DNA of 64,000 nt from an uncultured Candidatus Saccharibacteria bacterium (GTDB lineage Bacteria > Patescibacteriota > Minisyncoccia > HO2-45-28): NCBI GenBank assembly GCA_964412115.1, contig CAYPMM010000001.1, forward strand, positions 764-64,763, given 5' to 3'. Every line of letters begins with the position of its first letter. The stretch's first letter is position 1. The notes under the pieces are model-generated. The model had not been told where the DNA came from. It did no database searches and saw only the letters and a list, made by a program, of their open reading frames with translations. Both the position numbers and the translations under genes were made by a program. Positions 32,296 to 49,959 of the stretch are shown here, one piece after another.

Positions 32296-33407
32296 GATTC
32301 AACAATTTTTTGATAATATTCCTCTGCAGACGGTAACCCTCGGGTCTTTTTTACCGCTTCTTCAATCAAACCGCCCCGCAACTCGTCATTTTCCAAAATG
32401 CGTAAAATTGCGCCAATCAGTGCGTTTTTATCGCCTACGGACACAATAAGACCGTTTTTTCCGTCTTCAATAAGTTCTCCCGCAAGACCGACATCGGTCA
32501 TTATAACAGCCGCGCCATATTGCATGGCCTCAACCACGCTCACCCCCCAGCCCTCATATAAACTAGTTAAAAGAAAAACATCGGCGCCTTTGTAATATGA
32601 AGCAGTATTTTTCTGCCATCCTTCAAATCTTATATTAGCTGTTAATTGATAGTTTTTGGATTTTATCTCAAGAGCTTTTCGTTCGGGTCCGTCGCCAACT
32701 ATTATCAAACCGGTTTTGGGATGTTTTTTAACCACTTCAGCCATTGCGTCAAGTGCTAACCCGATGTTTTTTTCTGAGGTAAGGCGCGAGACCATTAAAA
32801 TCGTTTTACTAAATTCGGGGAAACGCTTTGGTTCAATATTTAAATCTGCCGATTCGGCTAAAATCGGCAAAACCACGACTTTGGGGCCGGGGGCTTGGGG
32901 CTGGGGGCTTGGAATAGACCGCCTGATGCGTTCCGACACGACACGGATACATGACGCCCGTGGAATCAAAAATTTTGCGAGCGTTGCCCTCATTTTATTA
33001 AATACCGAGTGTCTAATAAAAAACGGAATAAAAATATCGGCATGAATCTGCATCTGCCAAGGCGTGCCAAATCTTAAAGACAAAAGCCAGCAGATTTTGG
33101 CATGCTCGATATCCTGCGCGACCAGTAAATTATGTTTATTTTTCGCAATCAACCGCCATGCCAGAAAAAAACCTGAAAAAAATCTCCAAAAAATCCCGCC
33201 CTTGGCATACACAAAAAGATTCCCCTGATTATTCCCATGAATTTTCCCGGGAATTTTTCTTGCAAGCACAACAACATCAAGCCGTTCCAGGCGCTTCGCG
33301 TATTCTCCCACTCTTTTTGCTGCGGCTGAATCCTTGTCTAAAATATTCGGATCAGCCGAAAACATCAGTATTTTCATAACAATTCTTTCTGATAGCACTC
33401 TTTGCAT
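32280..33407 (-). CDS. glycosyltransferase family 4
   Basis: TSLYEGWGVSVVEAMQYGAAVIMTDVG (EX7E motif). Confidence 0.7.
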   Translation of the reverse strand: MQRVLSERIVMKILMFSADPNILDKDSAAAKRVGEYAKRLERLDVVVLARKIPGKIHGNNQGNLFVYAKGGIFWRFFSGFFLAWRLIAKNKHNLLVAQDIEHAKICWLLSLRFGTPWQMQIHADIFIPFFIRHSVFNKMRATLAKFLIPRASCIRVVSERIRRSIPSPQPQAPGPKVVVLPILAESADLNIEPKRFPEFSKTILMVSRLTSEKNIGLALDAMAEVVKKHPKTGLIIVGDGPERKALEIKSKNYQLTANIRFEGWQKNTASYYKGADVFLLTSLYEGWGVSVVEAMQYGAAVIMTDVGLAGELIEDGKNGLIVSVGDKNALIGAILRILENDELRGGLIEEAVKKTRGLPSAEEYYQKIVESWQKC

Positions 33408-35080
33408 AAAATATACGGGGTTTCGTTTTCCGGATGCGAGGTTTCAAAACCGGCGCTGCATTTGGAGCATTTGCGCTTAAAAATACGCAGGTTTTTGACC
33501 CAGATGGCGAATTTTTCGTTGATTCGGCAGAAAGGGCACTCGCGAGGCAACGGCAGATTCATCTCCCGCAAAAACTTAAGCTCCATCGGGATGATTTTAT
33601 ACCCTCGACCACACTTTTTACATTCAACGACTTCTTGTAAAACATTATCCGGTGCGTCTTTGATGTTATCGGGCAAGTCATTAGCCTTTTTGGTTGTCTG
33701 ATATTCTTTTTTGTCCTCATCCCGCCACCAATAACCCCGTTCTTCGGCCTCTTCTTTAGTCAAAGGAAAGAAGTTTTGGGCAACTGTTTCATTATAAGCA
33801 TAGGGCTGGATTTCTGTAGGGAAAAACTCGCCGTATCTATACACTCGGCCATTTTTGTCTACATAAGGCATATCATTCATGTGCTCAATAATTTCGGCGC
33901 GAAGTTTTTCAAACTCTTCTTTTTCGTAGCGTTTGTTCAAAATTACATAATCTCCTTTTTTCATAGAAACGCATCCGAAATGGTTTGACCCGCCGGCTGA
34001 AAGCTTGCAGTATTCAGCATTAAAAAGATTGATGCCCGCCTCTTGGCAAAATCTCATATTTGAGGAGTTTTCTCCAATAATAGCTCCCTCGTAAGAGAAT
34101 GTTAGATTTTGGCCCCAGTTAGTAATATCATAGCAATCTTTAATTGGGGGATCTGCTACCAAAAACATATATTTACAGTCCTCCGCGCCTACAGTCTCAA
34201 AACATTCTTTGCAATTTTTGGATTGAAAAACATAATTTCCGGAAGAATTAACAGAAAGAGTGTCATAATACGGCCTTGGCGAAAATTTTTTCCAATATTC
34301 TTCGGCCAATTTCTTGACCTCCTGATAAGTTCTATATGAACCCAAATCCCATTTGGAAATTTCTTTAAAATAACCTTCTTTTGAGTATTGTTTATTGAAA
34401 ATATGGTATTTTTTGTTTCGCAAGTTGGCCGACGCAAAACAATTTTGGGAATTATGCACATCACGGCAGAAAAAACATTCAAACGACTCCGTCATATCAA
34501 AATGAGAGCCAACACACTTATTACATTTAAAAGAATGTGTACAGTCATAAAGAAGTTCATTTGTATGAATAAAAGAGGAATCAAAACAGGATTTGCTATG
34601 CAATAAAACCAAACCATAGGCAGAATCCTCACAAAAAGAGCCGTGAAATATCAAATAACAATTTTTAAGATAATCGTTATGATTGGTATAGGGAGATGTT
34701 GCCATTGACTCTTTGCCGATTGAAAGTCCGAGAAGCGGGACCTCTCGCCACATTTCTTTTAACTGCTCAAAAAAAGGACGCGAAAAATCGTAGTCGCGTC
34801 CGTATTCGTGGGGGTCCCAGTTATCAGACCACCAGCAAGTTGGGCAGTAGGCCTTAACAGGCGCTTCCGGCGCATACATAGAAATTGAGTCCTTTCCGCA
34901 TAAATCACACTTCCTTTTATAAAGATTCACCAAATTCTGAAAAGAAAGACGTCTCTGGAAACGGCATTTGGGGCACCACGTCGGCGCGGGAACTTTTATT
35001 TTTTCGTAAAACTCAAAATCCTCCGGCTCAATTGTGAACTCGTTTCTACAATTCTGACAATTTTTAATTTCTTTTTGCAT
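33374..35080 (-). CDS. Cys-rich zinc-ribbon protein, paralog 1 of 3 (unknown family)
   Basis: 568 aa; N-terminal CQNC...CPKC...CDLC...CPTC and C-terminal CKKC...CPFC...CSKC...CKEC ribbons; central region rich in Cys/Asn/aromatics; paralogs at 46043-47749 and 48277-49959. Confidence 0.6.
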   Translation of the reverse strand: MQKEIKNCQNCRNEFTIEPEDFEFYEKIKVPAPTWCPKCRFQRRLSFQNLVNLYKRKCDLCGKDSISMYAPEAPVKAYCPTCWWSDNWDPHEYGRDYDFSRPFFEQLKEMWREVPLLGLSIGKESMATSPYTNHNDYLKNCYLIFHGSFCEDSAYGLVLLHSKSCFDSSFIHTNELLYDCTHSFKCNKCVGSHFDMTESFECFFCRDVHNSQNCFASANLRNKKYHIFNKQYSKEGYFKEISKWDLGSYRTYQEVKKLAEEYWKKFSPRPYYDTLSVNSSGNYVFQSKNCKECFETVGAEDCKYMFLVADPPIKDCYDITNWGQNLTFSYEGAIIGENSSNMRFCQEAGINLFNAEYCKLSAGGSNHFGCVSMKKGDYVILNKRYEKEEFEKLRAEIIEHMNDMPYVDKNGRVYRYGEFFPTEIQPYAYNETVAQNFFPLTKEEAEERGYWWRDEDKKEYQTTKKANDLPDNIKDAPDNVLQEVVECKKCGRGYKIIPMELKFLREMNLPLPRECPFCRINEKFAIWVKNLRIFKRKCSKCSAGFETSHPENETPYILCKECYQKELL

Positions 35081-35119
35081 ATTAATCTATTCTCAAATTC
35101 TCAAGAATATTAGAATAGT

Positions 35120-35692
35120 TTATATTTTATCTATCCTTTCTCCACGGCCAAGTAAAAGCGCCGGATAGCCGCTATGATTTATTTCTAAGGTTCCGCACCC
35201 TAAATTCTTAAGAAACGACACCATTTCTTCCATTATTTTTTTGTGGTCGTCATGATACCTTTTGCCATAATACTCAATTTCAACGAAATCACCGAGATCT
35301 TTTACCGAATCAACCGATATTTCATAATCTTTGTATTTCCATATTTTCCGTTTTTTGTCCACAACAACTACCGGCTTAAAATCAAGTTTTTCTAAAATTT
35401 TCCGCATTGTTTCAATGTTCTCTATTTTTGTTTCGTGCTCATCCGCGTAAAGCCCTCTGCCCTCTTTGTCAAAATGCCACTTTTTGTAATTTATTGAGTA
35501 TTTTCCATTTGAGTCGCGAATCCTTAACCATTCTTGAATGAGTCTTGGCTCCAAAAAGTCGCGATGCTCCGGTGTAAAATATTCGTCAATTTGATGGTTC
35601 TCCGATTCAAAATCGGCCTCTTTTTCCAAAAAATCCAAAAGGGGCTCAGTGTGTTCAACTTTTGCCTGCAATTCAATTTCAGTTTCTTTCAT
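35120..35692 (-). CDS. CYTH domain protein (class IV adenylyl cyclase / triphosphate tunnel metalloenzyme-like)
   Basis: N-terminal EIELQAKV (ExExK) motif, ~190 aa. Confidence 0.5.
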   Translation of the reverse strand: MKETEIELQAKVEHTEPLLDFLEKEADFESENHQIDEYFTPEHRDFLEPRLIQEWLRIRDSNGKYSINYKKWHFDKEGRGLYADEHETKIENIETMRKILEKLDFKPVVVVDKKRKIWKYKDYEISVDSVKDLGDFVEIEYYGKRYHDDHKKIMEEMVSFLKNLGCGTLEINHSGYPALLLGRGERIDKI

Positions 35693-35714
35693 GTTTTTTT
35701 ATATTTTATCTATT

Positions 35715-36821
35715 CTACCATTCGCGCGAATTAGAGATATGTTTTAAGACCTTTAATGTTTCCTCTATCATATTCTGGCCGGTAAATTTTGAAACGTCGC
35801 GACGGGCAGTTTCGGCTAAGTTTTTGGCAAGTACCAAATTGTCCAGAAGTTCTAAAATCGCGGGAACCCAGGCGTTTTTTTCATTATAACCCGCGATAAG
35901 CGAATTTTCTCGGTCTTTTAGAATTTCCTTGTTTCCGCCGGCCGACGTACTTATAATAGGCGCACCGACCGCCATCGCCTCCAGAATTTGGTGCGAAAAT
36001 CCTTCATAACCGGTGTTGAGCAAAAATATGTCGGCTGCCTTCAAATACTTCAGGACTTCTTCATGAGGCCGAGAATTGATAATAAACAAACTTGCGTCAG
36101 GATATTTTCTTTTAACTTCGGGCATTATCTCGTCCAGCATTTCAAATCCTTTCCACGGCACAGAGCGCCCGACGCTTACCAAAATTTTTCCGTTCAAACC
36201 CAGTTCTTTTCTTAGTTCCTCTTTGCCTTTGGAAATTTCCGGAATGCTAACCGAGTTATAAATAAACTTTATTTTTTCGGGTCTAACACCCCATTTTTCA
36301 ATCACGAATTTTAGATATTGACTGGGAACAATTATGGCCCCGGCCGACCTCGCCACAAATCTTTCAACCCGGCGCAAAAATTCAACTCTAAAACCGTACT
36401 TCTTATCTAAAAATTCATCCAGCAGCTCCTTAACGCCGAAGCGGTTAACTCCCTGCTCCCAGGCGTAGTCGCCCACCACCTTTAAAACGAACGGCTTTCG
36501 TAAAATTAAAGACGCGACACATGGAGCCAGCCCAAAAACAGGATCCTGCGCGTAAATCAAATCCGCGCCAAACGCTCGCTTAAAAATTTTAAGAAAATAA
36601 AATAAATAACGAAAAATTTTAGGCGCCTCGGGACTGATAAAACCGTAAGATAAAACATCCACTTCAACTCCGCGTTTAGGCAATTCGTCCGAAAGTAGTT
36701 TCGAGTATGTCGCCGGACCCCCGATGTCAGGCGGAAAAAGAGGTGTTGCAATTAAAATCCTCATTTGAAATTTATTAACCGATAAAAAATTCCGCCCATA
36801 GTGACCGCGATTTTGTCCCAA
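35715..36821 (-). CDS. glycosyltransferase family 4
   Basis: NTGYEGFSHQILEAMAVGAPIISTSAGG. Confidence 0.7.
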   Translation of the reverse strand: MGQNRGHYGRNFLSVNKFQMRILIATPLFPPDIGGPATYSKLLSDELPKRGVEVDVLSYGFISPEAPKIFRYLFYFLKIFKRAFGADLIYAQDPVFGLAPCVASLILRKPFVLKVVGDYAWEQGVNRFGVKELLDEFLDKKYGFRVEFLRRVERFVARSAGAIIVPSQYLKFVIEKWGVRPEKIKFIYNSVSIPEISKGKEELRKELGLNGKILVSVGRSVPWKGFEMLDEIMPEVKRKYPDASLFIINSRPHEEVLKYLKAADIFLLNTGYEGFSHQILEAMAVGAPIISTSAGGNKEILKDRENSLIAGYNEKNAWVPAILELLDNLVLAKNLAETARRDVSKFTGQNMIEETLKVLKHISNSREW

Positions 36822-37939
36822 GAATAATTTTCATAAACAAGTTTTTTGGCATTTTGGCCTATTTTTTTTCTAAAATCCGGGTCGTGTAAAAACCTTTTTA
36901 TCTTTATCGCCAAATCTTGCGGGTCGTCAACTTCCGAGAGGAGCCCTGTTTCGTTGTGACGCAAAAAATCGGGAATACCGCCTACGTTTGTGCCAACTAT
37001 AGGCAGTCCGGCGCCCATTGCCTCCAAAAAGGCCGATCCCAGGCCTTCGGAGCGCGATGGACGCGCGAAAACATGGGCTATGGCGTAATATTTTGAAAGC
37101 GCGCCGTGGGACATATTGCCCATAAAATGGATGCGTTTTTCAAGTTTAAGAAGCCTTGCCAGCTCTTTTAATTTTTTTTCTTCTGGGCCGGCGCCGGCGA
37201 TGAAAAGATGCGCGTCTGGAATTTCGGCGACAGACTTAATTAAAACATCAACCGCGTTTTTGCGGACCAAACGAGACGCGGTAATCACTACTTTTTGCTT
37301 GTCGGTTATGCCGTGCCTGATTTTTAACTCGCGCAACTCTTCAGAGGTAATATCTTTATTAAAAATATTTAAGTCGGCTCCGTTTGGAACAACAACTATT
37401 TTTTCGGCAGACGCGCCCATGCGCGCGGAGAAATCGCGAAGAAAACGGCTGATAACCTGAATCTTATCGGCCAGGCGAACCGCCATCATCCACGAAAGAC
37501 CGGTTAATCCAAGATTAGAAAACTTCAAATGATTTTCAGAATCCCCCTCCTGCAAGGTGAGCAGAATGGGAACGCCCTTATTCAGGCCTAAAATTTTTAA
37601 TATAAACGGCGCCCCGCTGGTATATGTCGCCATCATGCTCCAAAAAAGAGCGATTTTATTTTTTTTTATCAATTTACGCGCAAAGTACGCTCCGGCAAAA
37701 GGAGAAAGCAGTTTGTCCAAGAAAGGAATGATTCCGAAACCAAATCGAAAAACATCAACAGCGCCTAGACGTTCGTGTTTGGGCAATGAATGTTTTAATC
37801 TGGCTGTAAACAAAACAAAATTAAAGTCTTGCCCCAGACGGTCTGTAATTTCTTTAATCGCCAGCTCCGCTCCGCCGACCATCGGCAGGTAGGCCGTTGA
37901 AAAAATAAGAACGGTTGGCTTAGGTTGAAATTCGTCCAT
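36761..37939 (-). CDS. glycosyltransferase family 4
   Basis: ARPSRSEGLGSAFLEAMGAGLPIVGTNVGG. Confidence 0.7.
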   Translation of the reverse strand: MDEFQPKPTVLIFSTAYLPMVGGAELAIKEITDRLGQDFNFVLFTARLKHSLPKHERLGAVDVFRFGFGIIPFLDKLLSPFAGAYFARKLIKKNKIALFWSMMATYTSGAPFILKILGLNKGVPILLTLQEGDSENHLKFSNLGLTGLSWMMAVRLADKIQVISRFLRDFSARMGASAEKIVVVPNGADLNIFNKDITSEELRELKIRHGITDKQKVVITASRLVRKNAVDVLIKSVAEIPDAHLFIAGAGPEEKKLKELARLLKLEKRIHFMGNMSHGALSKYYAIAHVFARPSRSEGLGSAFLEAMGAGLPIVGTNVGGIPDFLRHNETGLLSEVDDPQDLAIKIKRFLHDPDFRKKIGQNAKKLVYENYSWDKIAVTMGGIFYRLINFK

Positions 37940-37963
37940 TTTCAGCTTATTATGTAATAAAAT

Positions 37964-39136
37964 TTGTTTATGGTCAATCGCAAAAAAATTCTATATTTAA
38001 TCACCAAATCCAACTGGGGCGGGGCGGGAAAGTATGTTTATGAGCTGGCGATTTGGGCAAAAGAGCGCGGTTTTGATGTCGCGGTTGCGGCCGGAGGACA
38101 AGGTGCGCTTGCGCAAAAATTACAGGAAAAAAACATCCGATATTTTGACGTTGCGGGACTCCAAAAAGATGTGGCTTTTTTAAAGCCGTTTATTTCGGGA
38201 TTTGTTTTATTAAAAATCCTATTTAAATTCGGGCCGGATATTGCGCATGCAAATAGTCCTCAAGCGGCGGGCATAGGCGGAGTTGCTGTTTTGATTTATC
38301 GCCTATTTACTTGGAAACGCCGTGTCCAAGCGGTTTACACGATTCACGGCTGGTCGTTTCATGAAGCGCGTCCGGGGCGGCAAAATTTTTTGATACGGCT
38401 TTTTTCAAAAATAACTTGTCTTTTTTATCAAAAAATAATCTGCGTTTCGGAATATGACTGCCGGTCTGCTTTAAAATTCAAAATCGCGCCCTCGCGCAAA
38501 CTCACGATCATACATAACGGCATTGACCCGCAAGATTTAAATTTTTTGTCCCGCGAAGAAGCGCGTGTTTTTTTGGGATCGAATCCCAAAACGCCGCGGA
38601 GATTCGATCCCGACGAGCTAATAATCGGCACAATAGGAGAATTCACTAAAAACAAGGGACAAAAATATTTAATAGAGGCGCTCGGTTTACTTGAAAACAG
38701 GGGTGGGAAATTTAAGAGTTTAATAATTGGCTGGGGAGAGGAGGGTGAAAAGTTAAAAGAACAAAGTTCAAAATTAAAATTAGAAAATGTTGTTTTTATT
38801 GAAAATCTTTCGCCGGCAGCGCCGCATCTTAAAGCTTTTGATATTTTCGTTTTGCCGTCAATTAAAGAGGGTTTGCCTTATACTTTGTTGGAAGCAGGGC
38901 TTGCCGAACTTCCGGTAGTTGCGACGAGTGTCGGCGGAAATCCCGAAATAATAGAACACGAAAAAAACGGCTTGCTTGTAGGGCCGGCTGATTCTGAAAA
39001 ACTAGCCAAAAATATCGCGCGTTTAATTCAAGACGAGGCGCTAAGAAAAAACCTTGGCCGAAACTTGCGTCAAAAAATAGTTAAAGATTTTTCTAAAGAA
39101 AAAATGCTAGAGCGAACTTTTGCGCTTTACAAATAA
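37964..39136 (+). CDS. glycosyltransferase family 4
   Basis: LPSIKEGLPYTLLEAGLAELPVVATSVGG. Confidence 0.7.
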   Translation: MFMVNRKKILYLITKSNWGGAGKYVYELAIWAKERGFDVAVAAGGQGALAQKLQEKNIRYFDVAGLQKDVAFLKPFISGFVLLKILFKFGPDIAHANSPQAAGIGGVAVLIYRLFTWKRRVQAVYTIHGWSFHEARPGRQNFLIRLFSKITCLFYQKIICVSEYDCRSALKFKIAPSRKLTIIHNGIDPQDLNFLSREEARVFLGSNPKTPRRFDPDELIIGTIGEFTKNKGQKYLIEALGLLENRGGKFKSLIIGWGEEGEKLKEQSSKLKLENVVFIENLSPAAPHLKAFDIFVLPSIKEGLPYTLLEAGLAELPVVATSVGGNPEIIEHEKNGLLVGPADSEKLAKNIARLIQDEALRKNLGRNLRQKIVKDFSKEKMLERTFALYK

Positions 39137-40417: not shown

Positions 40418-40457
40418 ATAAAATTAGAGTAAAACAGACGTTGTAAATTTAAAAGAC

Positions 40458-40485
40458 TTGTAGTTTTGGCTGAATCATGTATAAT
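40458..40485 (+). promoter_or_regulatory. sigma70-like promoter for small plus-strand gene
   Basis: TTGTAG-16nt-TATAAT, followed by AAGGAG RBS and ATG at 40520. Confidence 0.5.
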
Positions 40486-40519
40486 ATATCCAGTTTGTTC
40501 CGCCAAAAAAGGAGAAGGA

Positions 40520-40790: not shown

Positions 40791-42803
40791 CTAGAATTTT
40801 AAGCTCTCGCCCGGTTTTAAAATCTTGCCCTTGCCCGCCTCAATGCTTTTGCTTTGGGCGGGTTTTTTTTCTTCATCTTTTGCCGGTAATTTTTCGTCCG
40901 TTTTCATTGTTTCTTTAAGAGCTTCGCGAAGCTCGTCTAACTGCGATTTTTTATCTTTTTTCATTTCCTGCCACGCCTTGGCTTTTAACTCGTCAAGCGA
41001 CAAGGTTTTTTCGGGCGCCTGCCTTCTCACTACCGGCTCACCTCCTTGCAGAGGAGCCGGACGCGGAACAAATTGCCGCGCTGGCGCCTGACGCGTAGGA
41101 CGTTCGGCGCGCTCAGGCGGACGGGCTGGAAATTCGGAACGAGGCCTGTTTGCGGCGGCAACATTTGTGCTTGCGGGTCTATCTGCGTTTGCGGGTCTGC
41201 CTGCGCCTGAAGGCGCGCTTGGGCGAGGGGTTCTGGAAGTGTTTGAAGAAAACTCAATACCCAAAAGTTCAAGGCCTCCGCCAAACTCTTCCCTATGGCC
41301 TTCGGTTGAGGGAAGCGGTCTCAACGGACGCAGTTCACCGGCCTCAATTTTTTTCAAACAATCAGAGCAGTAAACCGGCCTTCGGCCGTCCGGCTTGAAC
41401 GGCAGAGAGGCCGTTTTCTGGCAAATCCAGCAGGGTGTTTCAAATTTTTCTCCTTTTGAAAATGCCGTAGCCGAACCTACCGCTACTTCTATTTCCGACT
41501 CTTGGGCCCCAGGCAAAGAACTGGCCCATTTTTTAATGTCGGCCTCGACATCCAGCGCGGGCCTGGCATATTGTTTACGCGAAACCTCGATTATTTCTTC
41601 CGGCGGCGCCATTTCGGCGGTAATCGCGAGCGGAGGCAGGGTTGCCGCCGAAAAAGGCCGGCTGGCCACGCCATTTACCATCAGCTTCAGATAAATCGCG
41701 TAATTAGGAAGATCCACCAAATCCTGGATTTCAAATTCGGGCGTTACCTCTTTTTCCAAAAACTCGGCATCAGTTGCCCCCACCCGAAAAAAAATCATGG
41801 TACCCACGTTTCCAAAAACCGCATCGCGAACCCTGGTGGAAGTTTCGGTCACAAGCTGTCCCACATACTGGTGGGCAAGAACCAAATTAAGGCGGTATTT
41901 TCTGGCTTCGGAAAGAATGGAAGCAAAAGCTTCGGTGGTAAAATTCTGAAACTCGTCAACATAAAGATAAAAATCCTTGCGCTCCTCCTCCGGAATCCTT
42001 ACCCGCTCCATGGCCGCCAGCTGAACTTTGGTAATGAGCATCGCGCCCAAAAGCGCGGAATTATCTTCGCCTATTCTTCCTTTAGAAATGTTAGCCAGAA
42101 GTATTTTTCCCTGATTCATCAACTCAAAAACTTCAAAGCTTGATTTCGGCTGTCCGACAATGTTGCGGATGAGCGAGGTGGAAAGAAACTGCCCGACTTT
42201 GTTTTGAATCGGCACAATCGCCTCATTCCTGAATCTCGGTTCCCACACTTCGTATTCATTGAGCCAAAAAGCGCGCACAACCGGGTCGGTGACGTTGGCG
42301 ACAATTTTTTGACGATAGTCCCTGTCGGTTAAAATTCTTTGGATGCCGAGAAGCGTGGTGCCCGGAGTTTCAACCAAAGCCAAAATGCAATTTTGCAAAA
42401 TGTATTCCATTCTAGCCGACCATACATTCGCCCAGATTTTGGTGAAAATTCCAATTAAACCTTGCGCCACAAGGTGCTTGTATTTTTTGTCGGGAACTTC
42501 CAAAACATTAAAACCGAGCGGATAATCGGTATCAGCCGGATTGAAGTAGATAACATCTTTGGCCCGTTCTTTCGGAATTTTGGTCAAAAGGTCTTCAACG
42601 GTCTCGCCGTGCGGGTCAACGAAACAAAGCCCGCGCCCGGAGTTGATGTCTTGGATGGCCAAATTTTTAATAAGCACCGATTTTCCGGTGCCGGTTTTTC
42701 CGACAACATACATATGCTGGCGGCGATCGGGAACAGAGATGCCAAAAATTTTATTTTCGCCCCTGAAATTGGTCTTTGCGAAATACGCGGTATCACGAGC
42801 CAT
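40791..42803 (-). CDS. VirD4/TraG/TraD-like coupling ATPase (type IV secretion DNA-binding domain protein) with C-terminal zinc ribbon and disordered P/R/A- and K/E-rich tail
   Basis: Walker A VVGKTGTGKS, Walker B LYVDEFQ; CWICQ...CSDC ribbon; paralog at 43986-45476. Confidence 0.6.
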   Translation of the reverse strand: MARDTAYFAKTNFRGENKIFGISVPDRRQHMYVVGKTGTGKSVLIKNLAIQDINSGRGLCFVDPHGETVEDLLTKIPKERAKDVIYFNPADTDYPLGFNVLEVPDKKYKHLVAQGLIGIFTKIWANVWSARMEYILQNCILALVETPGTTLLGIQRILTDRDYRQKIVANVTDPVVRAFWLNEYEVWEPRFRNEAIVPIQNKVGQFLSTSLIRNIVGQPKSSFEVFELMNQGKILLANISKGRIGEDNSALLGAMLITKVQLAAMERVRIPEEERKDFYLYVDEFQNFTTEAFASILSEARKYRLNLVLAHQYVGQLVTETSTRVRDAVFGNVGTMIFFRVGATDAEFLEKEVTPEFEIQDLVDLPNYAIYLKLMVNGVASRPFSAATLPPLAITAEMAPPEEIIEVSRKQYARPALDVEADIKKWASSLPGAQESEIEVAVGSATAFSKGEKFETPCWICQKTASLPFKPDGRRPVYCSDCLKKIEAGELRPLRPLPSTEGHREEFGGGLELLGIEFSSNTSRTPRPSAPSGAGRPANADRPASTNVAAANRPRSEFPARPPERAERPTRQAPARQFVPRPAPLQGGEPVVRRQAPEKTLSLDELKAKAWQEMKKDKKSQLDELREALKETMKTDEKLPAKDEEKKPAQSKSIEAGKGKILKPGESLKF

Positions 42804-43050: not shown

Positions 43051-43053
43051 TTG

Positions 43054-43081
43054 TATTGTAGCAAATACACAGGATTTGTCA
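43054..43081 (-). promoter_or_regulatory. near-consensus sigma70 promoter driving the structured leader
   Basis: minus strand TTGACA-16nt-TACAAT. Confidence 0.55.
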
Positions 43082-43202
43082 AGTCCTTGTAATGGTTCAA
43101 TAGCTTGTAACCACCCAAAAAGCCAAAAAATGGCTTAAAATAAGGAGTTTTGGGTTAATTAAAATTACTAAAATTAAAACAAAATTAAAGTTAAGACAAC
43201 AA

Positions 43203-43238
43203 GATAACAAAACATTGCGATAGCAACGTTTTGTTATC
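43203..43238. repeat. palindromic element A (GATAACAAAAC-N14-GTTTTGTTATC, core GCGATAGC); possible bidirectional terminator/operator
   Basis: 11-bp perfect inverted arms, A-tract before and T-tract after; near copy at 43869-43904. Confidence 0.5.
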
Positions 43239-43284
43239 TTTTGTGTTTTTAGCCCTGTCCACTATTTTTGGCTCTATTCACTTT

Positions 43285-43854
43285 TTAAAAAAGTTCAAAC
43301 TTCTCTTTAAGTTCGGCCTCATTGGTAATATATTTTGCCTTTATATAGCGAACGTATCTCGAAACTTCGAAAAATTCAGCCACAAAGTCAATTTCGTCTT
43401 CACATTCGTAAGGAGAAACAAAAACGCTTCTTTGAAACTCCAGCAAACCCAATTCTTTGACTTTTTTACGAAATGCCTCGCGCGCCGGTTTATTTTTTTC
43501 GGGGATATCATAAATCACAATATGCCAATCGCCTTTCCATGCTTTCGGTTTTTTAACTTTCATACTTTCAAATTCATATTGTAAAACTCTCTTTTTTCCA
43601 TCTTCTGTAAGAACAATCGTGGTCGTGTCGTCATCGTTATCCCTGAAATCCACTAACCTGTCTTCATAAAATTCGCGGATTTTGGACCAAAGATAACTTT
43701 TATTAATTTCTTTCCAGTCATGCGCACAGGCTCTTAAAATTTTAAAATATCCGTTTGGCGAAGGCGAAAAGCCGAGCATAATGCCGGTTGTCAGACGAAG
43801 CAAAATTCTTTGTTTTAAAAACGCTGTTTTGTTCATAAACCAATCATAAATCAA
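43285..43854 (-). CDS. hypothetical protein with Cas2-like (PaaX-C-like) ferredoxin-fold segment
   Basis: WHIVIYDIPEKNKPAREAFRKKVKELGLLEFQRSVFVSPYE resembles Cas2 beta1-alpha1-beta2 (YDI...K.L...G.R.Q.SVF); TTG or downstream ATG start uncertain. Confidence 0.4.
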   Translation of the reverse strand: MIYDWFMNKTAFLKQRILLRLTTGIMLGFSPSPNGYFKILRACAHDWKEINKSYLWSKIREFYEDRLVDFRDNDDDTTTIVLTEDGKKRVLQYEFESMKVKKPKAWKGDWHIVIYDIPEKNKPAREAFRKKVKELGLLEFQRSVFVSPYECEDEIDFVAEFFEVSRYVRYIKAKYITNEAELKEKFELF

Positions 43855-43868
43855 TCATGGTGTAAAAA

Positions 43869-43904
43869 GATAACAAAATCAAGCGATAGCATAATCTTGT
43901 TATC
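43869..43904. repeat. palindromic element B (GATAACAA-N20-TTGTTATC, core GCGATAGC) immediately upstream of Cas2-like gene
   Basis: same orientation and core as element A. Confidence 0.5.
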
Positions 43905-43926
43905 ATTTTTAAAATATATGTTTTAG

Positions 43927-43970
43927 GTGTGTTCTAAATGTGTTTTAAATATTTTAAGTGTGTTTTAAAA
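43927..43970. repeat. three imperfect direct repeats GTGTGTTYTAAA (iteron-like)
   Basis: copies at 43927, 43939, 43958 between element B and upstream gene stop. Confidence 0.4.
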
Positions 43971-43985
43971 CAAAATATCATGTTT

Positions 43986-45476
43986 TTACACAATAGGCTC
44001 GGGGGGCGAGTCGGAAGGCTCGGCGGCCAGCTCCTTGTTCGCGTCCTCCTCAACACTCGGTGTTGGGATCCCGGAAACACCGAGTGTTTTCCTGGGCGCA
44101 GGAGAAAGTCCCAAAAGCTCGTTTTCTACTTCGATTATTTTTTTCTTTACCTCGTCAACAGGGGCGGCAAAATTTTTACGGCTGAACTCAATTATTTCGT
44201 CCTTAAACGATGCGTGCGCCGGCGGCAGAACTTTCAAAGTTTCGGCAGAAAACGGGTCGGCGGTATCTCCGTCAATCGTCATTTTTATATAAAATTGCTG
44301 CATCCCGAGATTAACCATATCTTTAGCCTTAAACACCGGCGTCATTTCGTTTTCAAGTTTGGCGGCATCATCCCCGCCCACTCTAAATACAACAATCGTC
44401 CCGACATTTCCCAAAACCGATTCTCTGACATGGGGAATCAATTGGCCCATAAACTGGTGGGCCACGGTAAGATTGATGCCGTATTTTCGCGCCTCCGAAA
44501 AAATATTTACGAAAGTGGTCGTAACCAGATTATGAAACTCGTCGACGTAAAGATAAAAGTCCTTTCTTGACTCTTCGGGCATCGCCGCCCTGGCCATTCC
44601 GGCCTGTTTTATTTTGGTGATGAACATGGAGCCGAAAAAACTGGAGTTCTCCTCGCCCATTTTGCCCTTCGAAAGGTTTATCAAAATAATTTTTTTCTCG
44701 TTCATTATATTCTCAAGGTCAATCTTGTTTTCCTGCTGTCCAAAAATATAGCGCAAGTACGGATTGGCCAAAAATTGCCCCAATTTATTTACAAGCGGAA
44801 TTATGGCGTCGGTATCAAACTTTTCAGACCAGTCGGCAAACTCAATCGCCCAGAACCGCTTGACCATTTCGTCTTCAATATATTCAATAACTTTTTGGCG
44901 GTATTTACGGTCGGTAAGCATTGAAATCATCCCGCGCATTGTCGCCATCGGAAAATCAAGAAGGGCGAGCACGGTGAAGCGAAACACATGCTCAAGGCGA
45001 GGCGTCCAGTTCGCGCCGAATTGCTTTTCCATTACCTCAATTAACCCCTGCGCCACCTGATGTTTAAGGTCGGGATTTACGTTTTGCAGAGGATTGAAAG
45101 AAATCGGCCATTCGGTGTCCGACGGGTCAACAATTATTGTATCTTTGACGCGTTCCTCCGGGATGAAGTTCAAAACCTCTTCAATTACGTCTCCGTGCGG
45201 GTCCATCAGGCAAATCCCGTGGCCGAATTGAATGTCCTGGCGAAGCATAAGTTCCAGAAGTTTTGATTTGCCCACGCCGGATTTCCCGACGATATACATA
45301 TGCCGCCTGCGATCGCGGCGTTTTATGCCGAAAATAAATTTTTTTTCTTCAAGCCCGGCGACATAGTTAGTACGCCCGAAAAAAACGACTTCTTTCGGGT
45401 CAAATTGCTTATATATCGGGAGTTCCGGAGGAGGCGGCGCGTATTTTATTATTTGTATCTTTCCTTCTCGCGCCAT
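43986..45476 (-). CDS. VirD4/TraG/TraD-like coupling ATPase paralog (short form)
   Basis: Walker A IVGKSGVGKS, Walker B LYVDEFHN; same family pattern as 40791-42803. Confidence 0.6.
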   Translation of the reverse strand: MAREGKIQIIKYAPPPPELPIYKQFDPKEVVFFGRTNYVAGLEEKKFIFGIKRRDRRRHMYIVGKSGVGKSKLLELMLRQDIQFGHGICLMDPHGDVIEEVLNFIPEERVKDTIIVDPSDTEWPISFNPLQNVNPDLKHQVAQGLIEVMEKQFGANWTPRLEHVFRFTVLALLDFPMATMRGMISMLTDRKYRQKVIEYIEDEMVKRFWAIEFADWSEKFDTDAIIPLVNKLGQFLANPYLRYIFGQQENKIDLENIMNEKKIILINLSKGKMGEENSSFFGSMFITKIKQAGMARAAMPEESRKDFYLYVDEFHNLVTTTFVNIFSEARKYGINLTVAHQFMGQLIPHVRESVLGNVGTIVVFRVGGDDAAKLENEMTPVFKAKDMVNLGMQQFYIKMTIDGDTADPFSAETLKVLPPAHASFKDEIIEFSRKNFAAPVDEVKKKIIEVENELLGLSPAPRKTLGVSGIPTPSVEEDANKELAAEPSDSPPEPIV

Positions 45477-45477
45477 A

Positions 45478-46014
45478 TTAAATCGCGGATAATTCCTCTA
45501 AAGCTTTTCTATAGGCGCCGAGGCTTTTCATTGTTTCCTCGTGGCTCGGGCGGAAATTCGGCTCATGCGCTATGCTGTTTCTTAGTTTGTGCGCTTCCCA
45601 GATATCGTTTAAGACGGGTAACTCTCCTGGAGCAAGAGACCTAAGCCGTTCGGCCAGATTTTTACCCAAAAAACCGAGCCGGCCCATCGTTTCTTCAAGA
45701 AGAATGTCGGCCTCAATGATAGCCATGGCGTAACCCTGCGGGCCGGAAGTTTTGATTTTATTTACAATCGAGTCCCAGCGGCGTCTTGTTCTTAGTTTTA
45801 CCTCTTCTTCAAAATTAGCCTGTTTTTGAGGCGCTTGGTAAGCCCTGCGTCCTTCAAGAACGTATAATTTTTTCCTTAAGGGAAATGTTTTTATAAAGAC
45901 CCATGCCGAGAGCGCGAGAAGCGTCGGACCCAAAAAAATCAGGATAATTCTGATTCCGGAGTAAAGCCTTACCCAAAAACCCGCGTCAAACAAAAACCAA
46001 TCCGGAAAGTTCAT
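45478..46014 (-). CDS. membrane-anchored protein with HEPN-like Rx4H motif (DUF4145-like)
   Basis: Start set at internal ATG 46012-46014 to avoid overlap with upstream gene; one TM helix; C-terminal ...HKLRNSIAHEP. Confidence 0.35.
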   Translation of the reverse strand: MNFPDWFLFDAGFWVRLYSGIRIILIFLGPTLLALSAWVFIKTFPLRKKLYVLEGRRAYQAPQKQANFEEEVKLRTRRRWDSIVNKIKTSGPQGYAMAIIEADILLEETMGRLGFLGKNLAERLRSLAPGELPVLNDIWEAHKLRNSIAHEPNFRPSHEETMKSLGAYRKALEELSAI

Positions 46015-46042
46015 ATATTTATGATAATCAATAACACCGGTT

Positions 46043-47749
46043 TTATCCAACCTCGCGATTATAACATTCCTCGCAGTATAAAATATCCGGCTTTTCGGGC
46101 GAAAACGGGCTTGTAACTTCTTTTTCGCATTTAGCGCATTTACGGTTATAAAATTTAGGCGGATTGGTTTGGGCGAGCCGGTCCAAATGACGGCATTCCT
46201 GGCACTTTCGGGGTAATGGAAAATTCCACTTACGCAAAAGCGCGAGCTCTCCTGAAACAATTCTGAATCCCTTACCGCAAGCAGCACATCCGATAATTTC
46301 TTTGAGAATGTCGTCAGAAACGTCTTTAATGTCGTCCGGCAAGTCTTCGGATTTTTTTGTTATTTTATATTTTTGCGGTTCGTCGTCTTTCCACCGCCAG
46401 CCGGAGGCCAAAACTTCGTTTTTGGTTTTCGGAAAATAATACATCGCCCACGATTCGTTGTAATCAAAAAAACTCAAATTATACGGCAAAAACTCGCCGT
46501 ATTTCCAAACCTTTCCTTTTGAGTCCGTATAAGGATTTTTGTTCATGTCTTCAATAATCCGCGCGCGCAATTTCAAGTAATCCTCTTTTGAATACTGCTT
46601 ATTTAAAATACAATAAGATTTTTTAAAAAGGCCGACGCATCCGAAAATGTGCTGGCAAAAACCGGTCATCATTGAATAATCAATATCCAAGGTGCCCGAC
46701 AAAACACAGCCGAAACTAAATCTGACCGAATCCGCGCCTTCGCCCACGGTTATACATTCATAAATCCGCTGAGCATTGTTGCCCCATTCGGTATAGTCAT
46801 AGCAATCTTTTGTGGGACCCATTGAAATGAATTGTGCGAATCGGCAGTCCTCCGCCCCGGAAACTATATAGCTGTCTTTTACATTTTTAGACCAATAAAT
46901 ATAATCGCCCGAAGAATTTACGGCGTTTTGGCTGTGCATAAATTTTTTGGGGTAACGAAGCCAAAATTCTTTGGTTTTTTGTTTCAGTTTCTCAATTTCG
47001 CCGTATGAAGAAAGTTTGAATTTTGATAGTTCTTTTTGATAATCTTCTTTTGAATATGATTCGTTAAAAATATGATATTTCTTGCGCCTTAGACCGACAC
47101 AGCCGAAACAATCCGAGCATCCGGCCAAATCGCGAGAAAAATAAACATTAAAACAGTCTTCGCAGTCATCAGAAAAATGAACATTTGAATTTCTGGATGA
47201 ATTTATGTTTTCATAACAAAGCTGAATTTCTTCGGCAGAATAACAATCCATGGAATCTTTTGAATAATTTATAGTGTTGGAGTAGTAGCAATTTTCGTCA
47301 AAGTCGGCATCAAAAATCATATAGCAATTTTTTAGGTTTCCGGCGTGATTTACATATTCGCTGTTCACAAGCGTTGAGTGGTTGTTAAAAAGACCCGGGT
47401 AAGGTACTTTAAGCGATAATTCTTTTAATTGTTCAAAAAAACTGCGATTCGGGTCATAGTCCTGCCCGAATTCCATTCCGTCCCACTTGTCCGACCACCA
47501 GCACTTGGTGCAATAAACCTTAAACGGCTTGTCGGGAGAAATGTTGGAGAGTATGTCCTTGGCGCATAAACCGCATTTTCTTTTGTAAAGTTTCCGCGCG
47601 TTTCTGAACATCATTCTCCTTTGCATCCTGCACTCCGGGCAAAAAGTCGGCGCGGGGACTTTTATGCGCGCGTAAAATTCAAAATCCGCGGGTTCAATCG
47701 TGAACTCGGCTTTGCAATTCTGACAGGTTTTTGTTTCGGATTTATTCAT
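46043..47749 (-). CDS. Cys-rich zinc-ribbon protein, paralog 2 of 3
   Basis: 568 aa; N-terminus ~70% identical to paralogs; ATGA start/stop overlap with upstream RelE-like toxin gene. Confidence 0.6.
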   Translation of the reverse strand: MNKSETKTCQNCKAEFTIEPADFEFYARIKVPAPTFCPECRMQRRMMFRNARKLYKRKCGLCAKDILSNISPDKPFKVYCTKCWWSDKWDGMEFGQDYDPNRSFFEQLKELSLKVPYPGLFNNHSTLVNSEYVNHAGNLKNCYMIFDADFDENCYYSNTINYSKDSMDCYSAEEIQLCYENINSSRNSNVHFSDDCEDCFNVYFSRDLAGCSDCFGCVGLRRKKYHIFNESYSKEDYQKELSKFKLSSYGEIEKLKQKTKEFWLRYPKKFMHSQNAVNSSGDYIYWSKNVKDSYIVSGAEDCRFAQFISMGPTKDCYDYTEWGNNAQRIYECITVGEGADSVRFSFGCVLSGTLDIDYSMMTGFCQHIFGCVGLFKKSYCILNKQYSKEDYLKLRARIIEDMNKNPYTDSKGKVWKYGEFLPYNLSFFDYNESWAMYYFPKTKNEVLASGWRWKDDEPQKYKITKKSEDLPDDIKDVSDDILKEIIGCAACGKGFRIVSGELALLRKWNFPLPRKCQECRHLDRLAQTNPPKFYNRKCAKCEKEVTSPFSPEKPDILYCEECYNREVG

Positions 47750-48042
47750 TTTTGTTTTCGCAATAATCGCTTATAGATATTATCGCGCGCGTCAGCAATA
47801 AGCAATTTAATGGTGTGATTGGCAACAAATTTAAAGCCGACTCGATAATCACGGGTGATACGAAAAGAAAGCACGCCATGAAGCGGAGCCCCAAGACGTT
47901 TGGTATGCAATCTAGAATCAAAAGGATTTTTTCGAAGAATTTCTATAAGAGCCCCTAATTTATCTTGAACCTTACTTGGCAGATTATAGACATCTTTTTT
48001 GAAATCCGCCTCATAAATTATCTCATTTGACGGAACGGACAT
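47746..48042 (-). CDS. type II toxin, RelE/ParE family
   Basis: ...LHGVLSFRITRDYRVGFKFVANHTIKLLIADARDNIYK; start at internal ATG overlapping antitoxin by 20 nt (track start 48069). Confidence 0.6.
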   Translation of the reverse strand: MSVPSNEIIYEADFKKDVYNLPSKVQDKLGALIEILRKNPFDSRLHTKRLGAPLHGVLSFRITRDYRVGFKFVANHTIKLLIADARDNIYKRLLRKQK

Positions 48043-48247
48043 GGCGCAAAAATGCTTCCTTTGTGGCAAAGTGATACATTGTGCCTCGAGAAGACATTCG
48101 TTTGAGCATTTTTTTTACGAAAGCGGGTTTGTATTCACCTTCGGGGTCGCGATATCCCGCGAGAAGCAGATTTTTAACAACCTCCATATCCTTTCGGAGA
48201 ACAGAAACATCTTTATTAAGTTTTTTTACCAGAGTTTGGGTGGTCAT
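48023..48247 (-). CDS. putative antitoxin (74 aa) of RelE/ParE pair
   Basis: small ORF immediately upstream, overlapping the toxin. Confidence 0.4.
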   Translation of the reverse strand: MTTQTLVKKLNKDVSVLRKDMEVVKNLLLAGYRDPEGEYKPAFVKKMLKRMSSRGTMYHFATKEAFLRHVRSVK

Positions 48248-48276
48248 ATAACTTTATAATAACAAAAATACAAATT

Positions 48277-49959
48277 TTACGCAATTTCTTGTTTATAACA
48301 TTCCTCGCAGTAAATATACGGAAACTCGTCGGCGGCGTAAACTGAATCCACAGCTTTGTTGCACTTTTCGCACGCGCGAGAATAGAACTTTAAATGGTCA
48401 GCGATGAACCGAAGGCGTTGTTTATGCCGCTCAAAGGGGGCGAGCCGTGGAATTGGGATGTTAAAACGGCGGTAAAACGCAAGCTCTATCGGTATAATCC
48501 TATACCCATTCCCCGACGCTTTACATTTCAAAACTTTTTCTAAGATGTCGTCCTTAACATCACTAATGTCATCCGGAATGACGTAATCAGAAAAGACAGG
48601 CGACTCGGCTTTATATCTACTCCAAGCCAAGCCGGTCTTTTCGGCGTCATCCTCGTTGAGAGGGAAATACTCATAAGCAACTGTTTCGTTGTACGCAAAT
48701 GGAGATAACTCAAACGGCAAAAATTCTCCGTACCGATATTGCCGACCCGCCTTATCCACATACGGCATGTCATTCATGTGTTTGCGAATTTTCGTCGTAA
48801 GATTTTCGTATTCTTCTTTTGTGTATCGTTTGTTTAAAATACAATAGTCCTGTTTTTTCAAATTCATTGAGCCGAAACAATTATGACTTGCGGAAATGAA
48901 ATAGGAATATTCAATATTCGTACATCCCTCAAGTACTCCAATCGAAAACCTAACGTTGGCAATCTGATGTACTCCCCCCATCAATTCATATAAGAGTTCG
49001 CCACCCCACACGGATGTTGTGTCATAAGCGTCTTTAACCTGAAGAGTAAACAAAATATACTTTGAATCCTCAGTCTTTTCGGTAAGCCAACAAAAACTGC
49101 AACGTTTTGATTCATTGATGAAGTTGCCTTTTGAATTAACAGAACGTTCTATAAAAACGGCTCTCTGCGGCCGTGACTTCCAAAAGTCAAGGACCCGTTT
49201 TTTTACTTCTTCCAACCGAGAATACGACCCGTTTAGGTTCTCCCTTAGAAAACGCTCAAATTCATCTTTTGAAACCGGTTTGTTGAATATATGGTATTGT
49301 TTGTTCCGCAAACCGCTACAACCAAAAACATTAGAACAATTTCTGCAGTCAAAACAGAAGTATGAGTCGTGACAATCATAACAAAGCTTTGAATAAAAAA
49401 CCTTGTAGCAATTTTCGGAAAGCGTCGCTTCATATCCAAACTCCCCTTGTTGAAACCAGTATGTGTCAAAAGTGTCTTTGGTTTTAAGCGCATATTGGTT
49501 ATATGCGCCGTCCTCATTATCATGGCCACCAAAATTAAGATAGCAATTTTTTTCGTCTGTTTCGTAGTTGCACCATGGGCTATTCACCATATTTACCTGA
49601 AACAAAGCGAGGTGAGGAATATCGCGCTGTAGTTCTTGAAATTGAAGCAGGAACGATTTTGAAAAATCATAATTTCTGCCATATTGCATCGGATCCCACT
49701 TGTCCGAATAAAAACAGGTTGGGCAATATACCTTAAACGGCTTATCCGGCGAATACATTGTGATAACGCTTTTATGACAAAGATCACATGACCGTTTATA
49801 GAGCGTGCGTTCATTTCGCCACGCAAGCCGTCTTTGCAGTCTGCACTCCGGGCAAAAAGTCGGCGCGGGGACTTTTATGCGCGCGTAAAATTCAAAATCC
49901 TCGGGTTCGATTGCGAACTCTTGTTTGCAATTCTGACAAATTTTAATCTCTTTTTGCAT
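48277..49959 (-). CDS. Cys-rich zinc-ribbon protein, paralog 3 of 3
   Basis: 560 aa; 60-nt stretch (49841-49900) identical to 47628-47687. Confidence 0.6.
   Translation of the reverse strand: MQKEIKICQNCKQEFAIEPEDFEFYARIKVPAPTFCPECRLQRRLAWRNERTLYKRSCDLCHKSVITMYSPDKPFKVYCPTCFYSDKWDPMQYGRNYDFSKSFLLQFQELQRDIPHLALFQVNMVNSPWCNYETDEKNCYLNFGGHDNEDGAYNQYALKTKDTFDTYWFQQGEFGYEATLSENCYKVFYSKLCYDCHDSYFCFDCRNCSNVFGCSGLRNKQYHIFNKPVSKDEFERFLRENLNGSYSRLEEVKKRVLDFWKSRPQRAVFIERSVNSKGNFINESKRCSFCWLTEKTEDSKYILFTLQVKDAYDTTSVWGGELLYELMGGVHQIANVRFSIGVLEGCTNIEYSYFISASHNCFGSMNLKKQDYCILNKRYTKEEYENLTTKIRKHMNDMPYVDKAGRQYRYGEFLPFELSPFAYNETVAYEYFPLNEDDAEKTGLAWSRYKAESPVFSDYVIPDDISDVKDDILEKVLKCKASGNGYRIIPIELAFYRRFNIPIPRLAPFERHKQRLRFIADHLKFYSRACEKCNKAVDSVYAADEFPYIYCEECYKQEIA

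Follow-up and report, generated by a model that had tools for sequence, protein, structure and literature searches.

The 64,000-nucleotide stretch of DNA analyzed here, referred to below at its full length as the window (contig CAYPMM010000001.1 of an uncultured Patescibacteriota bacterium), harbors three related genes, p1, p2 and p3, whose cysteine-rich products carry a pair of putative zinc fingers at each end. They occur together with a block of genes that includes two ATPases resembling those of type IV secretion systems (T4SS), and are therefore candidates for partners or cargo of such machinery. An earlier note on this DNA, made from the sequence alone, had described three open reading frames (ORFs) of one paralogous family of double zinc-ribbon proteins; all three are present and intact, and all are read from the minus strand. 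The genes, with the domains of p1 as delineated below, are:

33374..35080, minus strand: p1, intact ORF of 568 aa; P1 type, a mostly single-copy and highly conserved orthogroup
34796..35080, minus strand: p1 N-terminal double zinc module (putative), aa 1-95; C8/C11/C36/C39 (CxxC-x24-CxxC) and C58/C61/C79/C82 (CxxC-x17-CxxC)
34400..34690, minus strand: p1 predicted β-solenoid A, aa ~131-227; ~16 short strands with 6-residue periodicity
33929..34240, minus strand: p1 predicted β-solenoid B, aa ~281-384; internal duplicate of A, with lower model confidence (pLDDT 61-80)
33374..33640, minus strand: p1 C-terminal double zinc module (putative), aa 481-568; C487/C490/C515/C518 and C538/C541/C559/C562
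46043..47749, minus strand: p2, intact ORF of 568 aa; four intact zinc sites; second widely conserved subfamily
48277..49959, minus strand: p3, intact ORF of 560 aa; divergent, zinc site 3 degenerate

Aligned end to end, the three proteins share 43-46% of their amino acids in pairwise comparison (52-54% identity at the nucleotide level). Cysteine accounts for 4.8-5.6% of their residues versus 0.7% in the remaining proteins of the window, and asparagine and tyrosine are about two-fold enriched by the same comparison, while phenylalanine and tryptophan show no enrichment; the description of a central region dense in all five residues thus holds, by composition counts, for Cys, Asn and Tyr only. 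No signal peptide or transmembrane (TM) segment was found in p1, p2 or p3, in keeping with the earlier note (maximum 19-residue hydropathy ~1.0), and the pI of family proteins lies between 6.4 and 7.8. The common architecture proposed for the three proteins applies overall, except that the C-terminal ribbon pair of p3 is not intact, as three of the four cysteines of its first ribbon are gone.

The conservation of individual residues was scored in an alignment of 51 homologues and, more widely, in a survey of 216 diverse members. Of the 16 cysteines in the four sites, 13 are invariant among the 51 sequences, including all eight of the N-terminal module, and three are conserved at 98%, the sole exception being p3, in which site 3 has lost three cysteines (C490S, C515A and C518E in p1 numbering). 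The spacing CxxC-x24-CxxC followed by CxxC-x17-CxxC recurs at both ends of the protein, and hhalign establishes homology between the two pairs, aa 3-85 at the N-terminus and aa 482-565 at the C-terminus (probability 99.2%, E 1.8e-19). Among the 216 members, 97% retain an intact Zn1 and 97% an intact Zn4, whereas Zn3 is intact in 87% (lost in 13%) and Zn2 in 61% (lost in 39%). The C-terminus is equally constrained: the chain ends exactly 6 residues past the final CxxC in 208 of the 216, with the consensus CxxC-Y-[QN]-x-E-[VI]-Φ-COOH, and the last 30 residues of family proteins carry a net charge of -2.1 ± 2.3.

Domain libraries return weak matches to these modules. Against PF13451 (zf_Tbcl), p2 and p3 score 18.8 and 16.1 bits, both under the gathering cut-off of 24 bits, and p1 gives no match; weak matches were obtained for 24 of the 51 members at E <= 0.05 (best 3.3e-4). 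The hallmark of zf_Tbcl, two CxxC knuckles with the second as CPxCR, is nevertheless present in both modules (C36-P-x-C39-R40 and C515-P-x-C518-R519), and its residues are invariant or nearly so in the alignment, site 3 of p3 having lost them. The family therefore appears to be a divergent relative of PF13451 and not a scored member. The exact CxxC-x17-CxxC spacing of zf_Tbcl_2 (PF23477/TIGR04272) is likewise found twice, at C58-C61/C79-C82 and C538-C541/C559-C562, and p2 approaches both models (PF23477: 23.2 bits, E 5.4e-5, cut-off 27 bits; TIGR04272: 23.8 bits, E 2.6e-5, cut-off 36 bits). Weak zf_Tbcl_2 matches occur in nine of the 51 members, and PF23477 is precomputed on many p2-type orthologues in Parcubacteria. 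With these two families, the proteins studied here share both spacing and motif (FxIxxxDxxFYxK..P.P..CPxCR with CxxC-x24-CxxC, and CxxC-x17-CxxC). The library families, however, are short domains of unknown function, found either alone or appended, whereas here two tandem pairs bracket a double β-solenoid of 400 aa for which no library has a model. That p1, p2 and p3 bind zinc is suggested by the invariant Cys4 geometry together with experiments on the related domain; small CxxC-x17-CxxC proteins of Methanosarcina bind the metal, as shown by inductively coupled plasma mass spectrometry (PMC12704099).

The central ~400 residues are predicted to form two homologous β-solenoids. In the AlphaFold2 model of p1, built from 51 sequences (pLDDT 89, pTM 0.87), 4-residue strands repeat every 6 residues and helices cap each run, and residues 133-241 are homologous to 282-394 (hhalign of aa 100-265 versus 266-405, probability 97.9%, E 3.7e-13). 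The domain order is a double treble-clef zinc module, solenoid A with its helical cap, solenoid B with its cap, a conserved α/β middle and the second zinc module. The periodic cysteines pointed out for this region do not form an array of metal ligands: they are mostly unconserved and exchange with Ser, Val, Asn or Leu in the 51-sequence alignment, and they also differ among p1, p2 and p3. A metal or Fe-S site at these cysteines was thereby rejected, and their variability would fit core packing instead of metal binding.

Structural neighbors of the model are mostly secreted or surface β-solenoids, such as curli, trimeric autotransporter adhesin heads, Ag43 and antifreeze proteins. Compared with small β-solenoids (the ryegrass ice-recrystallization-inhibition protein 3ult, Tenebrio 1ezg, spruce-budworm 1m8n, curli CsgA 8c50 and phi29 gp12 3gq7), the likeness is one of fold only and is generic. 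Those proteins are secreted or extracellular, and the insect antifreeze proteins among them are disulfide-bonded, whereas the family has no signal peptide, unconserved cysteines, flanking zinc modules and 2-13% identity to them. Secretion, the 12-residue TCTxSxxCxxAx repeats and the disulfide cysteines of the insect antifreeze family PF02420/TmAFP are all lacking in the family. No catalytic-looking residue set is found family-wide among the 216 members, and no histidine is invariant in the solenoids; apart from the cysteine ligands, residues conserved across subfamilies are mostly aromatic or structural. PADLOC models of anti-phage defense gave zero families for p1, p2 and p3. The fold and remote-homology searches for which the earlier note had called (PDB by sequence and by structure) returned generic matches only and assigned no enzyme family. 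These negative searches point to a non-enzymatic character. They also agree with the earlier note, which had not recognized the family: Pfam and NCBIfam offer only the weak zf_Tbcl and zf_Tbcl_2 matches, and the library, PADLOC and PDB searches support a soluble protein with several zinc sites and no characterized relative. The architecture as a whole is shared with nothing characterized.

Although three members are found within the window, the family extends far beyond it. Searches with p1 and p2 each recover more than 6,000 clusters at 90% identity, all "hypothetical", and the named matches all belong to Patescibacteria/Parcubacteria. An exhaustive profile search yielded 4,654 representatives at 50% identity (1,982 with E <= 1e-30), with uniform lengths of ~540-600 aa. 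Orthologues of p1 are 57-77% identical across Niyogi-, Lipton-, Brenner-, Giovannoni-, Jorgensen- and Sungbacteria, and the P1 orthogroup comprises 35 members in 33 loci; those of p2 occur at 50-82% identity in many Parcubacteria. p3 is divergent and stands as a singleton in a set of 79 loci taken from species-representative genomes, its best relative being 46.7% identical. Family members in these loci form co-directional head-to-tail arrays. When one further locus (L001) and the window were added for the array scan, at least two members were found within <=22 kb in 50 of 81 loci, and three loci hold 10-11. At the extreme, 11 or more co-directional paralogs of ~1.7 kb each lie in 22 kb and occupy >17 kb of genome. 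Paralogs within one genome have a median identity of 38.7% and a maximum of 59.6%, values that rule out recent duplication. The paralogs are ancient: in other candidate phyla, separate sets of orthologues of p1 and of p2 are found at 50-82% identity. A phage or mobile-element origin was ruled out, as no relatives were found in phage, plasmid or IMG/VR collections. The literature searched held nothing describing the family, DUF8128 (a domain of the neighboring block, see below) or treble-clef proteins in combination with the candidate phyla radiation (CPR).

Within these divergent genes, p2 and p3 share a patch of identical nucleotides:

47628..47687, minus strand: probable gene-conversion tract, p2 copy; codons ~21-41, first zinc finger
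49841..49900, minus strand: probable gene-conversion tract, p3 copy; identical to the p2 copy at 60/60 positions

Its position and unusual GC richness, both pointed out in the earlier note, were confirmed. The match is exact, cannot be extended by one base and occurs only twice in the window; its GC content is 53% versus ~40% for the genes, and GC at third codon positions 0.62 versus 0.43-0.45. It encodes DFEFYARIKVPAPTFCPEC(R), in the first zinc finger. When synonymous codons were permuted with both proteins kept, the longest match averaged 14.8 nt and reached at most 29 nt in 1000 trials, against the 60 observed; therefore, amino acid conservation cannot account for 60 nt.

We determined the longest exact nucleotide match for paralog pairs residing in the same genome (n=327) and for between-genome pairs (n=3000). 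Within genomes the median is 15 nt, with 23 pairs (7%) at >=30 nt, nine at >=40 nt, five at >=60 nt and a maximum of 75 nt, whereas between genomes the median is 14 nt, three pairs (0.1%) attain >=30 nt, none attains 40 or 60 nt and the maximum is 36 nt. The 23 long within-genome tracts fall almost entirely in the zinc modules (N-terminal module 14, C-terminal module 8, middle 1). Given that tracts of >=30 nt occur in 7% of pairs within genomes versus 0.1% between them, the patch is best explained as a short gene-conversion tract of a kind that recurs in the terminal zinc modules, and such tracts keep the shared modules alike within one genome. Of the two possibilities raised in the earlier note, gene conversion or nucleotide-level constraint, the former thus stands; a universal constraint is ruled out, as between-genome pairs never reach 40 nt and proline codons are not fixed. 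Codons at the VP(A/P)PT motif lean to CCG, which makes up 0.49-0.65 of its proline codons across genomes versus a background of 0.34. An RNA element in the patch was also rejected, with no Rfam family anywhere in the window. All three paralogs (p1 34978-34999, p2 47644-47665, p3 49857-49878) have in common a GC-rich core, GTCGGCGCGGG(G/A)ACTTTTAT, whose coding-strand translation is IKVPAPT. p1 has only this 22-nt core in common with the patch, and 2 of its 22 positions differ.

The genes around p2 and p3 form a block that recurs in related genomes:

51402..52427, minus strand: σ70 region 4 and HARE-HTH protein (Pfam; σHARE below), first gene of the conserved block; 13 related loci
50050..51393, minus strand: DUF8128 (PF26449) membrane protein, N-terminal TM hairpin and VirB4-like fold; 14 loci
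45478..46287, minus strand: small single-TM protein, conserved in 10 related loci; ~172 aa in relatives, no Pfam match
43986..45476, minus strand: ATPase A, TrwB/VirD4-like, soluble, 496 aa; Walker A GKSGVGKS; TrwB_AAD_bind E 6.7e-10
40791..42803, minus strand: ATPase B, TrwB/VirD4-like, soluble, 670 aa; TrwB_AAD_bind E 3.9e-13; PF23477 E 2e-10

The two ATPases score 49.5 and 38.8 bits against TrwB_AAD_bind (cut-off 20.5), carry the Walker A motifs GKTGTGKS and GKSGVGKS, and both have TrwB as their best PDB sequence match (ATPase B: E 1.4e-7). No TM-like segment that could serve as an N-terminal anchor was found in either, and separate TM proteins, the DUF8128 protein and the small TM protein, are encoded upstream of them. 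ATPase B has a C-terminal zf_Tbcl_2 finger, and it also carries a low-complexity region rich in Pro, Arg and Ala and a tail rich in Lys and Glu; the PF23477 finger is common to ATPase B and the family. As listed, the small TM protein ORF overlaps the 3' end of p2 by 245 nt, and its true start is probably downstream of the listed one, for a protein of ~170 aa; its C-terminal AHKLRNSIAH recalls the HEPN Rx4H motif.

Across the 79 loci, all genes lying up to 5 kb from a family member were clustered. Homologues of ATPases A and B, which resemble the VirD4-type T4SS coupling protein (T4CP), dominate this neighborhood, being found in 31 of 79 loci and in 23 of the 45 loci of >=15 kb, and 42 of 45 T4CP-like genes lie on the strand of the family. 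The recurrent order is σHARE, DUF8128, TM protein, T4CP_A, the family array including P1, and T4CP_B with the zinc finger. The σHARE gene immediately precedes that of DUF8128 in 13 of 14 cases, an ATPase follows DUF8128 within three genes in 11 of 14, a finger-less ATPase lies within three genes upstream of the array in 11 loci, and the zinc-finger ATPase lies within three genes downstream in 8 of 8 cases. Peptidase M17 was considered as a conserved partner and dismissed, as it occurs in only five loci; this leucyl aminopeptidase stands in or beside the arrays of L004 (JANBVK010000001.1), L012, L014, L016 and L061.

In the closest closed genome, CP066691.1, the order is SecDF, ProDH, σHARE, DUF8128, TM173, ATPase A, a 140-aa protein, ATPase B, a protein with PKD and lamin-tail domains (PKD/LTD), glycosyltransferases and P1. 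Because the ~4-kb segment with p3, p2 and two small ORFs between them is missing there, we consider it a variable segment inserted inside the conserved block. In another Niyogibacteria genome a p2-type gene directly follows that of DUF8128 (HYT22_01575/01580); the DNA analyzed here likewise comes from a Niyogibacteria-like organism. The earlier note had placed p2 and p3 in an accessory island, but their surroundings are not random: the block around them, with DUF8128 and two TrwB/VirD4-like ATPases, is widely conserved. A CPR survey counted 5,713 VirD4-like T4CPs in 2,918 genomes, only 148 of them near virB4, and left their role open (10.1101/2025.01.22.634366). The resulting figure of about two orphan T4CPs per CPR genome matches the ATPase pair found here.

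Given that the co-directional synteny is conserved and the finger domain shared, we infer a functional coupling of the family to this T4SS-type ATPase module. The reading we lean to, with somewhat less than even confidence, is that p1, p2 and p3 are non-enzymatic accessory or adaptor proteins of the orphan module. Their partners would be the membrane-anchored DUF8128 protein with its VirB4-like fold, the small TM protein and the two soluble TrwB/VirD4-like ATPases. The parts most alike between paralogs, namely the N-terminal zinc module, residues 385-480 and the fixed C-terminus, may act as common docking elements, and the solenoids, which diverge more, would confer a separate binding specificity on each ancient paralog. 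P1 orthologues between genomes versus the P1-paralog comparison within a genome gave identities of 0.62 versus 0.51 for the N-terminal zinc module, 0.49 versus 0.45 for the mid-region and 0.45-0.49 versus 0.32-0.34 for the solenoids. The restriction of conversion to the zinc modules is in line with parts that have to remain compatible with partners in common, and the high conservation of orthologues argues for machine components over fast-evolving effectors.

Known systems offer partial likenesses. In the Legionella DotL-DotM-DotN-IcmSW complex, soluble accessory proteins, including a zinc-binding one, help a VirD4-family ATPase to recruit clients. Here, similarly, two TrwB/VirD4-like ATPase genes flank or adjoin those of the family, although, unlike in Legionella, the ATPases have no TM domains, accompany a DUF8128 protein of VirB4-like fold and lie away from a recognizable T4SS channel locus. 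The tandem VirB2-like pilin arrays of CPR T4SS also consist of 2-11 paralogs that are conserved in structure, divergent in sequence and linked to T4SS-type genes, with low average identity (25%, versus a median of 39% here); those pilins, however, are small, secreted and near virB4, whereas the proteins described here are 570-aa cytoplasmic zinc proteins near orphan T4CP-like genes (10.1101/2025.01.22.634366).

Several observations weigh against an accessory or adaptor role. In about half of the loci that extend over >=15 kb, no T4CP lies within reach, and p1 itself is ~6 kb away from the ATPases, with glycosyltransferase genes between. The contrast between paralog-specific and shared regions is modest (ratios 1.1-1.5), and the PF13451, PF23477 and TIGR04272 scores of the family proteins in the window are all beneath the curated cut-offs. 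Gene order in small streamlined genomes can, moreover, be inherited without functional coupling.

Other genes lie in and beside the block. Between p3 and p2 the earlier note had placed a toxin-antitoxin pair:

47746..48247, minus strand: two small overlapping ORFs of 74 and 107 aa between p3 and p2; possible RelE/ParE-type toxin-antitoxin pair

Two overlapping ORFs are indeed found there, but their toxin-antitoxin identity depends on sub-threshold matches: the 107-aa ORF resembles RelE/ParE/Gp49-like proteins at E 0.002-0.02 and the 74-aa ORF weakly matches DUF2683. With homologues in one and zero other loci, and no counterpart in the closed relative, the pair looks like a lineage-specific insertion. 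Between the ATPase genes, 43285-43854 (minus strand) encodes a 189-aa protein with a PaaX_M/Cas2-like domain and homologues in five related loci; no CRISPR context was seen around it. Just upstream of ATPase B there is a perfect hairpin with an 18-bp stem (43201-43240, minus strand), followed by a promoter-like site at 43055-43082 (minus strand) with a near-consensus extended -10 (11/12 matches, with TG). Together they suggest a transcription-unit boundary inside the block; the promoter and terminator scan of the window was otherwise uninformative. Directly downstream of ATPase B, 39107-40417 (minus strand) encodes a PKD and lamin-tail domain protein, secreted or anchored, with N-terminal signal-like and C-terminal TM segments; the same arrangement is present in the closed Niyogibacteria genome.

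In the region 28667-39136, a large glycosylation cluster, GT4-type glycosyltransferases number at least six and are accompanied by a PMT_2/GT22-like membrane mannosyltransferase and a CYTH-domain protein. p1 lies within this cluster, as the earlier note had stated, and is flanked by GT4 genes. The co-occurrence of glycosylation genes with the family, which that note had proposed to check, is rare, as GT4, CYTH and PKD/LTD neighbors are found in only 3 of the 79 loci, all close relatives. A general link to glycosylation was rejected, the glycosyltransferase neighborhood of p1 being lineage-specific.

Its setting between GT4 genes would also suit p1 as a left-handed β-helix (hexapeptide-repeat) acyltransferase acting in the surrounding glycan cluster, the more so as the strand periodicity is 6 residues and the best Foldseek PDB entries are GlmU, LpxD and γ-carbonic anhydrase. 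These left-handed β-helix matches are marginal, however, with a TM-score of ~0.1, so that no close structural match was obtained. Unlike GlmU, LpxA/D and Cam, the family has no conserved catalytic His, and the Hexapep signature of Pfam is absent from all 51 members at E <= 0.05. Together with the rarity of the glycosyltransferase neighborhood, this leaves the acyltransferase explanation largely refuted. A self-assembling structural or cytoskeletal role, with bactofilin-like β-solenoid paralogs forming a hetero-oligomeric filament or lattice in the cytoplasm, appears quite improbable. The many conserved, ancient paralogs per genome do resemble subunits of a heteromeric assembly, and MreB-like neighbors occur in seven loci. 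Yet no cytoskeletal Pfam family was matched, bactofilin (DUF583) included, at E <= 1 for p1, p2 and p3 or at E <= 0.05 for the 51 members; helices and zinc modules flank both solenoids in linear order and may hinder end-to-end stacking, and a locus may hold anything from 1 to 11 or more copies.

The adjoining T4CP-like genes, for which substrate recruitment is the canonical task, raise the possibility, which we do not consider likely, that the proteins are themselves translocated T4SS cargo or effectors, recognized by the VirD4-like ATPases through their conserved termini, delivered unfolded and refolding in the reducing cytoplasm of a host. The strictly conserved free C-terminus, the multi-paralog arrays, the mostly secreted or surface nature of the structural neighbors and the fact that no substrates of CPR T4SS are named in the literature searched are in line with this. 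Secretion signals of VirB/D4 systems, however, are typically Arg-rich, positively charged and disordered C-terminal tails, and neither positive charge nor disorder is found in the family, whose last 30 residues are net acidic (-2) and belong to a structured zinc finger ending ...CYQxEVΦ. A chain with two solenoids and four zinc sites would be hard to unfold, and the identity of P1 orthologues across candidate phyla (57-77%), with ancient paralogs at <=60%, is unlike that of fast-evolving effectors. In addition, T4CPs are mostly far from virB4, and the T4CP is non-essential in Southlakia. Zinc ribbons and treble clefs are also frequent nucleic-acid binders, and the four fingers could make these proteins housekeeping DNA- or RNA-binding factors, either independent of the ATPases or serving as DNA-loading or recognition factors for a VirD4/FtsK-like translocase, a role that we regard as similarly doubtful. 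Some members are labeled "Zn ribbon nucleic-acid-binding protein" by JGI, the block opens with the σ70r4/HARE-HTH DNA-binding protein and sometimes includes the PaaX/Cas2-like protein, ATPase B has a zinc finger and an Arg/Pro-rich tail, and the strong P1-type conservation suits a core function. The pI of the proteins is only 6.4-7.8, though, and no known nucleic-acid-binding family was found above threshold in the Pfam/NCBIfam and PDB searches; 39% of members can dispense with Zn2 and 13% with Zn3, and the need for up to 11 or more paralogs would be unexplained.

With an accessory or adaptor role as the preferred reading, the system would represent a variant of T4CP-plus-accessory systems; otherwise, this is a large family without a known analogue. 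It is carried by some of the smallest bacterial genomes, a number of which nevertheless spend >17 kb on tandem copies of this one uncharacterized family, and no Pfam model covers ~70% of the length of its proteins. The conversion tracts limited to the zinc modules provide a clean case of domain-restricted concerted evolution among ancient paralogs. The linkage to VirD4-like ATPases and DUF8128 offers a testable handle on the role of the CPR coupling-protein homologues. It can be speculated, although we hold this to be rather unlikely, that the block is an undescribed Paceibacteria-wide translocation or remodeling machine derived from T4SS ATPases, with the zinc-solenoid paralogs as its dedicated client set (substrates/effectors or substrate receptors). 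If true, this would explain why CPR genomes retain about two orphan VirD4-like genes each, and the zinc-solenoid paralogs would be the substrates/effectors or receptors by which these episymbionts act on their hosts.

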